Sequence record: OR780565.1
DNA from: Escherichia phage DCP2
DNA: 64,000 nucleotides
Strand: one strand, 5' to 3'
Under the pieces are notes generated by a model. The model made no database searches. It was not told the DNA's origin and saw only the letters and a list, made by a program, of their open reading frames with translations. Shown in pieces: positions 7,244 to 61,494 of this stretch (the stretch's first letter is position 1; each line of letters starts with the position of its first letter). Made by a program: the position numbers and the translations under genes.

Positions 7244-7276
7244 GTTTACAAGCATAAAGCTTTATGGTACTATACA
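7244..7276 (+). promoter_or_regulatory. T4-type early promoter
   Basis: GTTTAC then tatggtactatacaact. Confidence 0.65.
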
Positions 7277-8847: not shown

Positions 8848-9162
8848 ATGGAGGTAATGATGTTATACTCAAAGGCTCGTGAAATTTACGAAACTAAAAT
8901 TAAAGAAGCAGTATTTCAATTCGCAACGACAATGCGATGGACAAATGACTGGGAGTATTCAAAAAATCATAAGAAGCCCATGGTGACAAGAAAGGCTCAT
9001 ATGTTAGTGTTAATAGACCGTGAGCAGATTAAAGCCCGAGAAGCCCTCCAGAATCACAAAAAGGCTGCCTTTGAATGGTTTATGGATAACACTGCTCCTG
9101 AGACCAAGAAAGCGGTAAGTGCATGGTTCAGTGGAAAAAATTGTGAAAGAAGTTTCTTTTAG
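8848..9162 (+). CDS. Hypothetical protein, about 104 aa
   Basis: Three in-frame ATGs near SD ggagg (8848, 8857, 8860); exact start uncertain. Confidence 0.5.
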   Translation: MEVMMLYSKAREIYETKIKEAVFQFATTMRWTNDWEYSKNHKKPMVTRKAHMLVLIDREQIKAREALQNHKKAAFEWFMDNTAPETKKAVSAWFSGKNCERSFF

Positions 9163-9164
9163 TG

Positions 9165-9196
9165 GTTTACAAGACTGTTCCTCTGTGGTATTATTA
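9165..9196 (+). promoter_or_regulatory. T4-type early promoter
   Basis: GTTTAC then ctgtggtattattaccctatc; near-identical copy at 61323. Confidence 0.65.
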
Positions 9197-9227
9197 CCCT
9201 ATCAACTACGGAGGAACAGAAAATGAA
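9165..9227 (+). repeat. 62-bp promoter plus leader repeat (second copy at 61323..61385)
   Basis: Three mismatches over about 62 bp including SD ggaggaacagaaaATG. Confidence 0.8.
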
Positions 9228-9750
9228 CGCTAAAGATATTTTCAACTTAGTAAATTATAACGATGGTAAATTTAAATCTGAAGCACAAAGCAAGTTCTTT
9301 AATGACATCTCAATCGGAGGTGAAATCACGGTTGATGGAGGACAAATTTACAAATCCCGTTGGAATTGGATCGTTATTATCGATGAGATTGGTATTGTAG
9401 AAATTTACAAGAATACGAATAAAAATCGTACATTACACTGGTCTCGTGATACTAATGAACAGTACAAAAAGGATAAAGCATCTAAATTATCTCGTGTAAC
9501 TCAAGAAGATATTGAGTTCATCAAGAAAGATATTTTGATGTATGATAACTTAATTGCTGAAGAGCAAGCTGTTATTGATAAATTTGATGAGATTAAAGCT
9601 TCTCGTGAAATTCCTGATTTTATGAAAGAATCAGTAAATGAACGATACACTCTCATTTCAGAGCGTATTGAAACTTACAAAAAGCAAAGAGCTGAACGCC
9701 AAAATACTCTTCGGAAGTTTGAAGAACGGTTAAAGACGGTACTCGCATAA
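9223..9750 (+). CDS. Hypothetical protein, 175 aa
   Basis: ATG with SD ggagg directly after the early promoter. Confidence 0.6.
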   Translation: MNAKDIFNLVNYNDGKFKSEAQSKFFNDISIGGEITVDGGQIYKSRWNWIVIIDEIGIVEIYKNTNKNRTLHWSRDTNEQYKKDKASKLSRVTQEDIEFIKKDILMYDNLIAEEQAVIDKFDEIKASREIPDFMKESVNERYTLISERIETYKKQRAERQNTLRKFEERLKTVLA

Positions 9751-11117: not shown

Positions 11118-12146
11118 ATGAAAACTCGTTCTCAAATTGAAGATATGGTTCGTAATGCCAGCTATACTCGTGATGTTATGACATTTTTGTGTGAAAATAA
11201 TTTAGACCCTGATAAAGTTAATCGTGTTATTCATCACTTTAAGTATACGAATAGCAGTGAATGGGTGCGTAATTTTAGTAAAGCAGGGTATATTACGCAA
11301 ATGACGGCTCGTGAGCAGCTCACCGATTTCTGTAAAACTATTGATTATAAAAATCCTTTGATTGTTCAAGGCGTTGGTCAAAGTAAGGTCGATTTATCAT
11401 CTGGATTTTTCAATCCAAATCATTATCGTATTGAATGGAGATTTATTGCTCTGTTCCGTAGACAATTAAAGCAAATTTTATCAACTGCGAGTCGATTAAA
11501 AGGTTCTGATATTAACTTAAAGAATCTGAAATTTGATGGTTATACTCTTCAGATGGAAGTAAGACCGTTAAAAGAAAATAATAGAACTGCACGAATTAGC
11601 TTTAAGCCTAATACTAAAAATTCTCTTTCAATTTGTGAATGTCTTAAATCACAGCTGACAGAAGCATTTAAGTATATGGATGTTGTTGCTGCTGTTCAAT
11701 CTAAGATTTTACCTCGTTTTGAGCGAAATTGGGAACATACAACAACATATGAACTTGATATGATCGTTTCATTTAAATATGAATTTTTGAGAAAGGATGA
11801 AATTGTTCAAGAGAAAAAGCAGGAAGTGCAAGATACCTTAAATTTAAATTTATCCAATTACTTATCAAACGATCCTAAATGTTGGATGTACAGTTCAAGT
11901 AACATAGATGCATGTAAACTTAATAAAGTGAGTTTTCTTCCTACTGAAAATTCAAATTTTAAACCTGTAGAAAAATGGCACGCTGATGCGATTGAAAAGT
12001 CTCTTAAGGCAGTAGATGATGAACTCGTTAAAGCGACCAATGAAATGCTAGAAGCTGAAAAGGCGTTAGAACAAGCTCAGTCAAGGGTTCAAAATCTGAC
12101 AAAGCAACGTTCTAAACTGAACAATGCACTAAATGCACTGAACTAG
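11118..12146 (+). CDS. Hypothetical protein with C-terminal coiled coil (paralog 2 of 4), 342 aa
   Basis: SD aagga; C-terminal coiled-coil-like segment ending NALNALN. Confidence 0.6.
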   Translation: MKTRSQIEDMVRNASYTRDVMTFLCENNLDPDKVNRVIHHFKYTNSSEWVRNFSKAGYITQMTAREQLTDFCKTIDYKNPLIVQGVGQSKVDLSSGFFNPNHYRIEWRFIALFRRQLKQILSTASRLKGSDINLKNLKFDGYTLQMEVRPLKENNRTARISFKPNTKNSLSICECLKSQLTEAFKYMDVVAAVQSKILPRFERNWEHTTTYELDMIVSFKYEFLRKDEIVQEKKQEVQDTLNLNLSNYLSNDPKCWMYSSSNIDACKLNKVSFLPTENSNFKPVEKWHADAIEKSLKAVDDELVKATNEMLEAEKALEQAQSRVQNLTKQRSKLNNALNALN

Positions 12147-12177
12147 TTTACTTTACCACAAGGATGTGGTATAATGT
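12146..12177 (+). promoter_or_regulatory. T4-type early promoter
   Basis: GTTTAC then ggatgtggtataatg; same 32-bp element recurs at 56535. Confidence 0.65.
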
Positions 12178-33528: not shown

Positions 33529-33561
33529 GTTTACATCCCCGTTCTTCCATGGTACTATACA
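33529..33561 (+). promoter_or_regulatory. T4-type early promoter
   Basis: GTTTAC then ccatggtactatacaact. Confidence 0.65.
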
Positions 33562-33592
33562 ACTATCAACTGATACGGATTTGGAGAATGAA

Positions 33593-33973
33593 ATGAAAAT
33601 CGCTATTTTGGTTATTGCATTGGGTCTTACTGGTTGTGTAGCTCAAGGACCGGTAGTAAATCAATCTGATGTAGGAAAAATTGTAAACTGTTCAAGCAAA
33701 TTTTATAATCCTAATGTTAAGTGTTATAAAGAAGCTCCAAAACAGACAGTAGAACAAATGCAGGCGAATTTTGACGAAGCTATTCGTCCAGATGAATCTG
33801 CTCAAGCATATCGTAATTCAGATGTGATTACACGTGAAGAAAAAATTGAAAGTTACTGTGCCGAACTTTGGGCTAATTGGGCTAATAATTATCAATGGCG
33901 TACTGGTAAAAATGCTCCGATGGAGTATGTAGTAAATTCTTATAATTCATGCGTAAAAAATTTGACTAAGTGA
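33593..33973 (+). CDS. Lipoprotein, 126 aa
   Basis: First ATG after the promoter; signal peptide with lipobox LTGC. Confidence 0.6.
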   Translation: MKIAILVIALGLTGCVAQGPVVNQSDVGKIVNCSSKFYNPNVKCYKEAPKQTVEQMQANFDEAIRPDESAQAYRNSDVITREEKIESYCAELWANWANNYQWRTGKNAPMEYVVNSYNSCVKNLTK

Positions 33974-41607: not shown

Positions 41608-41641
41608 GTTTACTTTCTCAGCTTGCTGTGGTATTATAAAA
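41608..41641 (+). promoter_or_regulatory. T4-type early promoter
   Basis: GTTTAC then gctgtggtattataaa; arms ctcagc / gctgag flank the -10, the second overlapping the SD. Confidence 0.65.
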
Positions 41642-41662
41642 TAAACTGCTGAGGATAATATA

Positions 41663-51354: not shown

Positions 51355-51388
51355 GTTTACTTCCTCAGTTAGTTGTGGTATTATAACA
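51355..51388 (+). promoter_or_regulatory. T4-type early promoter with SD-sequestering inverted repeat
   Basis: GTTTAC then ttgtggtattataac; perfect 7-bp arms cctcagt (51363) and actgagg (51398), the latter containing the SD. Confidence 0.65.
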
Positions 51389-51411
51389 CCATAGCTACTG
51401 AGGATAATAAA

Positions 51412-54719: not shown

Positions 54720-56537
54720 ATGATTAAGAATGAAATTAAAATTCTGAGCGATATTGAACATATCAAAAAGCGTAGCGGCATGTACATTGGTTCTTCTGCT
54801 AATGAAATGCATGAGCGCTTTCTGTTTGGTAAATGGGAAAGTGTTCAGTATGTACCTGGTCTTGTTAAGCTTATTGATGAAATTATCGATAACTCAGTAG
54901 ATGAAGGTATTCGTACTAAGTTTAAATTCGCAAATAAAATTAATGTTACCATTAAAAATAATCAGGTAACAGTTGAAGATAACGGTCGTGGTATTCCACA
55001 GGCGATGGTTAAAACACCTACCGGTGAAGAAATTCCTGGTCCTGTTGCTGCCTGGACTATTCCAAAAGCAGGTGGTAACTTTGGTGATGATAAAGAACGC
55101 GTCACCGGCGGTATGAACGGTGTTGGTTCTAGTTTAACTAACATTTTTTCTGTGATGTTTGTCGGTGAAACTGGCGACGGTCAAAATAATATTGTGGTTC
55201 GCTGCTCGAATGGCATGGAAAATAAATCATGGGAAGATATTCCTGGAAAATGGAAAGGAACTCGCGTTACTTTCATTCCTGATTTTATGTCATTTGAAAC
55301 TAATGAGCTATCTCAAGTTTATCTTGACATTACACTAGATCGTCTCCAGACACTTGCGGTAGTTTATCCTGATATTCAATTTACCTTTAATGGTAAAAAG
55401 GTTCAGGGTAATTTTAAGAAATATGCACGCCAATATGATGAACATGCTATTGTTCAAGAACAAGAAAATTGTTCTATTGCGGTTGGTCGTTCACCGGATG
55501 GTTTTCGTCAATTAACATACGTCAATAACATTCATACTAAGAATGGTGGCCATCACATTGACTGTGTTATGGATGATATTTGTGAAGACCTTATTCCACA
55601 AATCAAACGTAAATTCAAAATTGATGTAACTAAAGCACGTGTTAAAGAATGTTTGACTATCGTTATGTTTGTCCGTGATATGAAAAACATGCGATTTGAT
55701 TCTCAAACTAAAGAGCGTTTGACTTCTCCATTTGGTGAAATTCGTAGTCATATTCAGCTTGATGCTAAAAAGATTTCACGTGCTATTTTGAATAATGAAG
55801 CAATTTTAATGCCAATCATTGAAGCTGCTTTGGCTCGTAAATTGGCGGCAGAAAAAGCAGCAGAAACTAAAGCAGCTAAAAAGGCTTCTAAAGCTAAGGT
55901 TCATAAACATATTAAAGCGAATCTTTGTGGTAAAGATGCTGACACTACTCTTTTCTTGACTGAGGGTGATTCTGCTATTGGATATCTTATTGATGTTCGT
56001 GATAAAGAACTTCATGGTGGTTATCCATTGCGTGGTAAAGTTCTTAACAGTTGGGGTATGTCATATGCTGATATGCTTAAAAACAAAGAACTATTTGATA
56101 TTTGCGCAATCACTGGATTAGTTCTTGGTGAAAAAGCTGAAAACTTGAATTATCATAATATTGCAATTATGACCGATGCTGACCATGATGGTCTAGGAAG
56201 CATTTATCCTTCTCTGCTCGGATTTTTTAGTAATTGGCCAGAATTGTTTGAACAAGGAAGAATTCGCTTTGTCAAAACTCCTGTAATCATCGCTCAGGTA
56301 GGTAAAAAACAAGAATGGTTTTATACAGTCGCTGAATATGAGAGTGCTAAAGATGCTCTACCTAAACATAGCATCCGTTATATTAAGGGACTTGGCTCTT
56401 TGGAAAAATCTGAATATCGCGAGATGATTCAAAACCCAGTATATGATGTTGTTAAACTTCCTGAGAACTGGAAAGAGCTTTTTGAAATGCTCATGGGAGA
56501 TAATGCTGACCTTCGTAAAGAATGGATGAGCCAGTAG
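54720..56537 (+). CDS. 39: DNA topoisomerase II large subunit gp39 (GyrB-like), unsplit
   Basis: 605 aa; GHKL ATPase EDNGRGIP and Toprim LTEGDSA; one continuous ORF (T4 splits this into genes 39 and 60). Confidence 0.95.
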   Translation: MIKNEIKILSDIEHIKKRSGMYIGSSANEMHERFLFGKWESVQYVPGLVKLIDEIIDNSVDEGIRTKFKFANKINVTIKNNQVTVEDNGRGIPQAMVKTPTGEEIPGPVAAWTIPKAGGNFGDDKERVTGGMNGVGSSLTNIFSVMFVGETGDGQNNIVVRCSNGMENKSWEDIPGKWKGTRVTFIPDFMSFETNELSQVYLDITLDRLQTLAVVYPDIQFTFNGKKVQGNFKKYARQYDEHAIVQEQENCSIAVGRSPDGFRQLTYVNNIHTKNGGHHIDCVMDDICEDLIPQIKRKFKIDVTKARVKECLTIVMFVRDMKNMRFDSQTKERLTSPFGEIRSHIQLDAKKISRAILNNEAILMPIIEAALARKLAAEKAAETKAAKKASKAKVHKHIKANLCGKDADTTLFLTEGDSAIGYLIDVRDKELHGGYPLRGKVLNSWGMSYADMLKNKELFDICAITGLVLGEKAENLNYHNIAIMTDADHDGLGSIYPSLLGFFSNWPELFEQGRIRFVKTPVIIAQVGKKQEWFYTVAEYESAKDALPKHSIRYIKGLGSLEKSEYREMIQNPVYDVVKLPENWKELFEMLMGDNADLRKEWMSQ

Positions 56538-56569
56538 TTTACTTTACCACAAGGATGTGGTATAATTAA
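56537..56569 (+). promoter_or_regulatory. T4-type early promoter
   Basis: GTTTAC then ggatgtggtataatt; 32-bp identity with 12143..12174. Confidence 0.65.
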
Positions 56570-59961: not shown

Positions 59962-60156
59962 ATGTTAGGTTATCAAGCACGAGTAAAAGAAGAATACGAT
60001 CAATTAATGCTCAAAATTAATGCACTGAGCAAATTTTTAGAAAGCACAAAGTTTCTAACGATTAATGAAGTTGAGCAAGAACTGCTGCTTTCACAGTTTA
60101 TCTCAATGAAATCTTACGCAGATTGTTTAGAGAAAAGAATTGCACAATTCAAATAA
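59962..60156 (+). CDS. Hypothetical protein, 64 aa
   Basis: SD ctgaggaaaatt. Confidence 0.55.
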   Translation: MLGYQARVKEEYDQLMLKINALSKFLESTKFLTINEVEQELLLSQFISMKSYADCLEKRIAQFK

Positions 60157-60161
60157 AATAA

Positions 60162-60180
60162 GGGCTTCGGCCCTTTTGTT
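60162..60180 (+). terminator. Hairpin terminator
   Basis: agggcttcggccc then ttttg. Confidence 0.7.
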
Positions 60181-60242
60181 TTAAGAGAAATTATGATTTA
60201 TTATATGAATACCAGTGATTCAGACATAAAAGGAAAGTCTAA

Positions 60243-60816: not shown

Positions 60817-60848
60817 GTTTACATACCACAAGGACCGTGGTACTATAC
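60817..60848 (+). promoter_or_regulatory. T4-type early promoter
   Basis: GTTTAC then ccgtggtactatacaact. Confidence 0.65.
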
Positions 60849-60873
60849 AACTATCAACTACAGAGGAACAAAA

Positions 60874-61137
60874 ATGAAATTTAAATTCTTTTATGTTAAA
60901 CATAAAATCACAGGTGAATTTGTTCATGTACAATATTCTGAAATTGACGATGCAACATCATTTATTTCATTGGGATTGTCTAAATATGAATCAGACCAAC
61001 CATATCTTACTGATAAATTGCAACAAGAGCGTTTGTTGAATGGTGATTTAAACAATTCTTGGGAAGTTCTTATTTACGATGATTTAAAGAAAGCTATTAA
61101 AGAAAATAATCTTGAAATCATTGAGATTGAACTATGA
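60874..61137 (+). CDS. Hypothetical protein, 87 aa
   Basis: First ATG after the promoter with SD agagga. Confidence 0.5.
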   Translation: MKFKFFYVKHKITGEFVHVQYSEIDDATSFISLGLSKYESDQPYLTDKLQQERLLNGDLNNSWEVLIYDDLKKAIKENNLEIIEIEL

Positions 61138-61322
61138 GTTCACTATGGTGGTGTTTTGTTTGGTTAATTAGTATTCCAGTAATTTGTTTAATATTTACTT
61201 TTGTGATGAGGTTATTATGAAAATTTTGAATTCTGTACTTATTGCTTGTGCGTGGTGGGTTGCACAGGTTTCAGCGGTAGTAGTTGGTATTCACATTTAT
61301 TACGAATATTTTTAAAAAAGTT

Positions 61323-61354
61323 GTTTACAAGACTGTTCTTCCGTGGTACTATTA
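61323..61354 (+). promoter_or_regulatory. T4-type early promoter
   Basis: GTTTAC then ccgtggtactattaccctatc; second copy of the 62-bp repeat. Confidence 0.65.
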
Positions 61355-61380
61355 CCCTATCAACTACGGAGGAACAGAAA

Positions 61381-61494
61381 ATGAAAAAGATTGTTAAAGC
61401 TATATGGAATGTAGTTATAATACTAGTAGTTTTGAGTATATTCCTAATCGTTTTAATGATTGATGTATTAAACGCTTACTTTGGATTTATGTGA
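61381..61494 (+). CDS. Small hydrophobic peptide, 37 aa
   Basis: ATG with SD ggagg after the promoter; single TM-like segment. Confidence 0.35.
   Translation: MKKIVKAIWNVVIILVVLSIFLIVLMIDVLNAYFGFM

Follow-up and report, generated by a model that had tools for sequence, protein, structure and literature searches.

The 64,000-nucleotide stretch of Escherichia phage DCP2 analyzed here (sequence record OR780565.1; hereafter the window) belongs to a Tequatrovirus, a T4-like phage, and is oriented as the reverse complement of the standard T4 map. Two of its intergenic junctions, ∼52 kb apart and in direct orientation, carry nearly the same promoter and leader. Site 1 sits between homologues of nrdC.9 and nrdC.8, and site 2 between homologues of ndd.5 and ndd.4; both the nrdC.x and the ndd.x clusters are made up of small ORFs. 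All four genes are on the plus strand. The nrdC.9 homologue upstream of site 1 (8848..9162) was assigned by its DUF7203 domain (Pfam PF23833), by phrog_1931 and by T4 gene order, and its TAG stop codon (9160-9162) falls 3 nt short of the -35 hexamer of site 1. The nrdC.8 homologue that follows (9223..9750; phrog_2274 and T4 gene order) encodes 175 aa. At site 2, a 32-aa ndd.5 homologue (61217..61315, with a TAA stop codon at 61313-61315; phrog match) precedes the ndd.4 homologue (61381..61494; phrog_3098), which encodes a 37-aa predicted membrane peptide. A Pfam search with NrdC.8 and Ndd.4 returned no match for either, and the two downstream genes are unrelated, as the original prediction held. 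The small ORFs at 9119-9226 and 61284-61397, which overlap the cassettes, are other reading frames through the cassette and were dismissed as spurious.

Around site 1, the window is 99.9% identical to Escherichia phage ECO07P4. The two are not the same phage throughout: at site 2, the TACCC of the window is replaced by ACAAC in ECO07P4, and identity across the gene 43-imm region drops to 98%. The genome is a mosaic, and no record in the phage collection matches the window over its whole length.

Both sites have the features of T4-type early promoters, namely GTTTAC(A/T), 17-nt spacing, TGn and TAnnnT. On the plus strand at site 1, a promoter scan placed the -35 hexamer GTTTAC at 9165..9170 (TTTACA, 9166-9171, in the sigma-70 register) and the -10 hexamer TATTAT at 9189..9194; TTTACA-17-TATTAT gives 10/12 matches, and the TG of an extended -10 is present (9186-9187). 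At site 2, also on the plus strand, the scan placed GTTTAC at 61323..61328 and TACTAT at 61347..61352, with 9/12 matches for TTTACA-17-TACTAT and again an upstream TG. From the usual 7-nt distance to the -10, transcription is predicted to start at ∼9201 and ∼61359 (cassette position ∼37). The Shine-Dalgarno (SD) sequence GGAGG (9210-9214 at site 1 and 61368-61372 at site 2) lies 8 nt ahead of the ATG, and that of site 1 includes GGAG, a RegB site. Upstream of the -35, site 2 has an A/T-rich, UP-like stretch (AATATTTTTAAAAAAGTT, 61305-61322), and at site 1 this interval is the end of the nrdC.9 gene (GAAAGAAGTTTCTTTTAGTG), rich in A/T but with no clear UP element. The homologous position to site 1 in Yersinia phage fPS-90 is annotated as a “predicted early promoter.” Each cassette comprises the -35 GTTTAC, an extended -10 TGnTAYTAT, a ∼22-nt leader, the SD GGAGG and the ATG; it is predicted to be used by unmodified E. 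coli sigma-70 RNA polymerase straight after infection, so that one cassette would drive nrdC.8 and the other ndd.4. Just before the -35 of site 1, a small A/U-rich stem-loop (GAAAGAAGUUUCUUUU, 9144-9161) covers the last nrdC.9 codons; it fits the “AGNA-loop-TCNT” pattern of the promoter early stem-loop (PeSL) elements of PST and T4, yet it lies within conserved coding sequence.

Aligned from the -35 hexamer through the ATG, the 61-mers at 9165-9225 and 61323-61383 match at 58/61 positions; the three mismatches fall at cassette positions 17, 20 and 27. The original prediction, a 62-bp cassette occurring twice with three mismatches, was right in the repeat and the mismatch count, and its coordinates were 1-2 bases off. 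No further copy of the 61-mer with ≤3 mismatches was found in the whole window, nor any in 100 dinucleotide-preserving shuffles. Ungapped extension (repeat family D4) stretched the alignment to 9161-9227 versus 61319-61385 at 94% identity (63/67). The identity is bounded on the left by the -35 hexamer and on the right by the second base past the ATG (ATGAA).

To set this likeness against that of promoters in general, we compared the same 61 nt among ∼20 clear GTTTAC-N18-TAnnnT promoters on the plus strand of the window (190 pairs). Pairwise identity among these 20 early promoters averaged 0.49 (sd 0.09). The site 1/site 2 pair reached 0.95, and the next-best promoter pair 0.69. For the spacer alone, the pair scored 0.89 against a class mean of 0.41, and from the -10 to the ATG it scored 1.00 against 0.38, so the identity does run through the leader and the SD up to the ATG, as had been claimed. 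Over the 20 nt upstream of the -35, the pair was not outstanding relative to the class. The two sites are a clear outlier among the early promoters of the window; the shuffles and the 190 promoter pairs rule out a chance or consensus-only likeness, and the similarity is more than the generic promoter consensus, again in line with the prediction.

Other early promoters and repeats in the window are related to the two sites or to each other. A neighboring early promoter on the plus strand (60817..60876), 506 bp upstream of site 2, is related in its -10 and leader (ACTATCAACTACAGAGGAAC); it would feed read-through transcripts into site 2 and may have donated the ACAAC block. Together with an 87-aa ORF (60874-61137; phrog_2390), this promoter follows denB. 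In T4, all that is left of 60874-61137 is eight codons (MKIAEIEL) preceded by an imm.1-type leader; in PST, its place is taken by ORF268, which is 53% identical, and an additional ORF269. The 60817-61137 region illustrates how genes bounded by cassettes are gained and lost. The early promoter between gene 43 and imm.1 (33529..33595, plus strand) has a related spacer (GTTCTTCCATGG). Elsewhere, the promoters at 12144-12175 and 56535-56566 (family D6) share a 32-nt core (TAGTTTACTTTACCACAAGGATGTGGTATAAT) at 100% identity with different genes behind them; here, the identity runs from the -35 through the -10 only, and the leaders differ. The related promoters at 41608-41660 and 51355-51410 (family D9) are 87% identical over 39 nt, and in each the spacer UCCUCAG pairs with its own SD, CUGAGGA (predicted −10.1 and −24.4 kcal/mol, respectively). 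We also observed a terminator-like stem-loop with a UUCG tetraloop (GGGCTTCGGCCC; families D7 and D8) in at least seven intergenic copies (20605, 23977, 28687, 30639, 54645, 59931 and 60154-60192). It is similar to the GGGC...GCCC motif tied to deletion endpoints by Mosig et al. (cited in PMC2839356).

The original prediction had explained the repeat by recent transfer of a regulatory cassette. We inspected the junctions in T4, T2, PST, fPS-90, Phaginator, nine metagenome or IMG/VR phages and the phage collection. T4 has the cassette at both junctions, between nrdC.9 and nrdC.8 and between ndd.5 and ndd.4. In the phage collection, site 1 with both flanks was present in at least 364 records, and site 2 with both flanks in at least 489. 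In every copy examined, the flanks were specific to the locus and the interior alleles alone differed. None of the relatives read base by base was without the cassette at either junction; a megablast table had suggested that T2 and Phaginator lack site 1, and direct reading exposed this as an artefact of word size and best placement. Cassette gain or loss at the two junctions was rejected, as the cassette was present in all phages checked. Neither copy therefore appears to be a new insertion, and both look long resident. Of the predicted transfer, the part that stood is that sequence has moved between the loci (see below). The part that fell is the recent gain, with both junctions already occupied in T4; the suggested comparison of flanks among related phages revealed no loss of the cassette and flanks that are constant for each locus.

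These data bear directly on the possibility that a mobile regulatory cassette was lately inserted at one locus, for example by integration of a PeSL mini-circle. A PeSL combines an early promoter, a stem-loop, and an SD and ATG, and such cassettes recombine (PMC2839356; PMC4122927); they give rise to mini-circles and bring about the gain and loss of ORFs (PMC2839356). Moreover, the region directly upstream of site 2 does vary, with the 87-aa ORF at 60874-61137 missing in T4 and ORF268/269 in PST. However, both junctions are occupied, within the same locus-specific flanks, in T4 and in all of the records counted above, and among the relatives read base by base every one had the cassette, with variation confined to interior alleles. 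We regard the recent-insertion reading as largely refuted and very improbable. For annotation, near-identical promoter cassettes in T4-like genomes should not be taken as recent insertions.

Within-genome identity between the sites ranged, among ten phages, from 52/61 in T4 to 60/61 in OBRH01000009; T4's own two copies thus match at 52/61 only. Positions 17, 20, 27, 31-34 (TACC versus ACAA) and 55 were each polymorphic at both loci, and three complete 61-nt haplotypes were found at both. With the flanks as markers, a four-gamete test gave a Hudson-Kaplan Rm of at least 4. A site-1-type cassette lay within site-2 flanks in 21 records, at 100% identity. In the opposite direction, a site-2-type cassette lay within site-1 flanks in phage e11/2 (61/61) and in Hafnia phage IsaacDaniel (60/61). 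In ECO07P4, the 31-34 block has apparently been swapped reciprocally between the sites, the site-1 allele being deduced. Relative to the close relative L027, 5/24 differences in 1300 nt cluster within 8 nt of the cassette. Overall, the exchanged patches range from ∼8 to 61 nt and go both ways.

Exchange also seems to extend beyond the two sites. In metagenome contig ULRM01008302.1 (L015), the gene 43/imm.1 promoter has a site-1-type spacer, -10 and ACAAC block; the overwriting of this promoter suggests that at least three loci take part. The ACAAC and TACCC blocks are present also in the early promoters at 7244, 7724, 33529 and 60817, so the donor of a patch need not always be the partner site. 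In the window itself, site 1 combines T27 with TACC, a combination like the site-2 alleles of L016 and L019, and T27 is not found in the window's own site 2. The -10-to-ATG half of site 1 is of the site-2 type, which raises the identity between the sites from the 52/61 of T4 to 58/61.

One could instead ascribe the likeness to convergence, that is, to selection acting in parallel on the strength of promoter and SD and on the pairing of the hairpin, without physical exchange. T4 early promoters have an unusually long consensus (PMC2988021), and the hairpin described below ties the spacer and the SD together, both of which would favor such an outcome. Yet both the 31-34 block, in which TACC and ACAA differ at four linked positions, and entire 61-nt haplotypes change locus among phages in both directions, the loop block 31-35 is free of pairing constraint, and the other early promoters of the same genome stay ∼49% identical. 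We therefore give convergence almost no weight. An old promoter duplication followed by slow divergence alone, with the identity in this lineage owed to strong purifying selection, would suit the membership of both sites in one promoter subfamily, along with 60817 and 33529. It predicts fixed, locus-specific differences, however, whereas nearly all variable positions are polymorphic at both loci, and within-genome identity swings over the range given above among close relatives; this account, too, is highly unlikely.

We favor, at a probability of roughly 80%, the reading that the two cassettes are resident members of one subfamily and that recurrent short-tract, non-crossover gene conversion maintains their likeness, the mechanism being deduced from the alleles. 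The closeness of the two cassettes would then come from repeated copying of short patches between loci and not from insertion. In this lineage, a patch covering at least positions 27-34 would have made that part of site 1 site-2 type, and a third locus would join the exchange now and then. The T4 recombination system, for which <50 bp of homology suffices, would perform the conversion. A crossover between the direct repeats would delete 52 kb, so presumably non-crossover products alone survive.

The cassette also contains an inverted repeat. Positions 11-25 are complementary to positions 41-55, giving a predicted 15-bp stem with a 15-nt loop. By RNA folding on the plus strand, the 5′ arm at site 1 (CTGTTCCTCTGTGGT, 9175..9189) lies in the promoter spacer and holds the extended -10 TG, and the 3′ arm (ACTACGGAGGAACAG, 9205..9219) holds the SD GGAGG; at site 2, the 5′ arm (CTGTTCTTCCGTGGT, 61333..61347) is likewise in the spacer, and the 3′ arm (ACTACGGAGGAACAG, 61363..61377) again holds GGAGG. 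The predicted hairpins have folding energies of −25.5 kcal/mol (z = −6.2) at site 1 and −22.7 kcal/mol (z = −4.7) at site 2. The -10 box (positions 25-30) and the predicted start (∼37) fall in the hairpin loop, and the SD falls in the middle of the stem. By itself, the promoter-proximal leader was unstructured (z = 0.1 and −0.4 at sites 1 and 2, respectively).

This geometry suggests how the hairpin could act. Early promoters lie upstream of site 1 (7244 and 7724) and of site 2 (60817), and there is no detectable terminator between them and the cassettes, so read-through RNA with both arms is expected. RNA from the upstream promoters would fold the stem and bury the ribosome-binding site. RNA from the cassette's own promoter would start within the loop and, being without the 5′ arm, be open to translation.

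Variation in the stem is partly consistent with this idea. Among 13 distinct haplotypes, 5/13 core pairs vary, each on one side, and pairing is kept via G-U or A-U. Such one-sided, pairing-preserving variation fits the sense-strand RNA alone and not DNA. The only break in the core stem was G49U in T2; site 1 of T2 (L034) has GGATG for GGAGG, which weakens the SD and the hairpin alike. The two terminal stem pairs were frequently broken. Among the close-relative haplotypes, we observed no double-sided compensatory changes, and covariation statistics equaled the shuffle control, all changes being one-sided. At a more distant nrdC.8 locus (L032; 68% protein identity), the spacer is an unrelated one (UCUCCAGUAG), and it pairs with the SD region of that locus (CUACUGGAGG; −19.5 kcal/mol, z = −4.4). 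In the Mosigvirus-like L028 and L036, the spacer pairs with the region after the -10 and leaves the SD free; we therefore rejected the notion that SD occlusion is conserved in all nrdC.8 orthologues.

The folds of the other early promoters in the window complicate the picture. Eight of the 20 have z < −3.5, and 7 of these 8 have the 5′ arm in the spacer, yet the hairpin covers the SD in only ∼4/20 (9165, 61323, 41608 and 51355). With so few promoter hairpins covering the SD, occlusion may be a side effect of a more general role of the stem-loop. The main rival to SD occlusion is indeed such a general role, in which the inverted repeat works outside translation as an attenuator, as a stabilizer of RNA 3′ ends, or at the DNA level, for instance as a recombination hotspot. 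In support, inserting a PeSL stem-loop between a promoter and lacZ lowered expression as much as a strong terminator did (PMC2839356), and both the promoter census and the free SD in L028 and L036 fit. On the other hand, neither hairpin has a U-tract after the stem and no intrinsic terminator was detected at either cassette, on which grounds intrinsic termination was rejected as the function of the hairpin; furthermore, GGAGG sits mid-stem, and the G-U-only variation indicates sense-strand RNA and not DNA. We consider a non-translational role a serious possibility that nonetheless falls short of even odds. A search of Rfam gave no family above its gathering score (best potC RNA, 20.5 bits versus 44).

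Given this mixed evidence from haplotypes, distant relatives and other promoters of the window, we put SD occlusion as a selected function of the hairpin at about even odds. It is more tentative still, and on balance somewhat doubtful, that the dispersed early-promoter cassettes form a concerted-evolution family in which long-range conversion moves both arms together and so maintains an anti-SD insulator hairpin. If that were true, each small early gene would be shielded from read-through translation and expressed from its own promoter alone; the PeSL stem-loop would gain a post-transcriptional role and PeSL recombination a homogenizing role, neither of which is in the PeSL papers.

More broadly, strong early promoters serve as portable homology in T4-like phages. 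Cassette exchange can change how genes are expressed and set off the gain or loss of genes in hyperplastic regions, which hold host-adaptation genes. A functional spacer/SD hairpin would allow dozens of closely packed tiny early genes each to be expressed only from its own promoter, and would offer a compact insulator design for synthetic operons.

As promoters, the two sites resemble the T4 early class, which belongs to the sigma-70 “uber” UP/-35/TGn/-10 promoters and has extra conserved positions (Hinton, 2010, PMC2988021). GTTTAC, TGn, TAnnnT, the 17-nt spacing and extra start-proximal positions are common to both sites. We found no essential difference from this class, except that the pair is far closer (0.95 versus 0.49) than the consensus demands.

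Hairpins in which an internal promoter matters are also familiar from T4: those of e, soc, 49 and I-TevI have internal promoters that are late or middle, and the device delays expression. According to Uzan and Miller (2010, PMC3014915), a long RNA started upstream of these genes buries the SD or the AUG, and a promoter inside the hairpin yields a short RNA that is without the 5′ arm and is translated. The cassettes are similar in the predicted pairing of the SD in read-through RNA, with GGAGG central in the 15-bp stem. Here, the upstream and internal promoters are both early, and the hairpin would thus insulate transcription units from each other and not set the timing of expression. The SD of site 1 has a further parallel in RegB processing, since Durand et al. 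(2006, PMC1702504) found moderate in vivo cleavage of the T4 nrdC.8 GGAG by RegB; the accessible text does not report ndd.4. The sequence after the SD, GGAGGAACAGA, matches the RegB consensus GGAGRAYARAA in part only.

The closest known relatives are the PeSLs, and the cassettes belong to this established class of element, at promoter positions already known in T4. PeSLs have an A/T-rich upstream region, a strong early promoter and a stem-loop that commonly lies over the -10 box, and they are repeated in hyperplastic regions (PMC2839356; PMC4122927). Both of our sites fit the PST/T4 consensus TTTACW-N17-TAYWAT, have a predicted 15-bp stem-loop over the -10 box, and end the repeated unit with an SD and start codon; both lie among small non-essential ORFs in hyperplastic regions and are repeated round the genome. 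Like PeSLs, they serve as a recombination substrate, here seen in alleles and whole haplotypes common to both loci, and the window, T4 and PST differ in ORF content just upstream of site 2; the site 1 junction showed no indel. The ndd.4/.5 region had already been implicated as an exchange site, specifically in Comeau et al. (2014, PMC4122927; see also PMC2839356).

The cassettes differ from published PeSLs in two respects. In the published cases, crossover between nearby copies produces deletions, insertions and mini-circles, whereas here non-crossover patches appear to be exchanged over 52 kb, and neither junction has gained or lost a gene. The PeSL authors propose a terminator or attenuator for the stem-loop, whereas the hairpin here has a 15-nt loop, no U-tract, and a 3′ arm that contains the SD. 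Neither PeSL paper mentions gene conversion or translation (PMC2839356; PMC4122927). What our analysis adds to this framework is modest: population-level evidence of two-way patch conversion over 52 kb, and the geometry of a hairpin that would join the promoter spacer to the SD.
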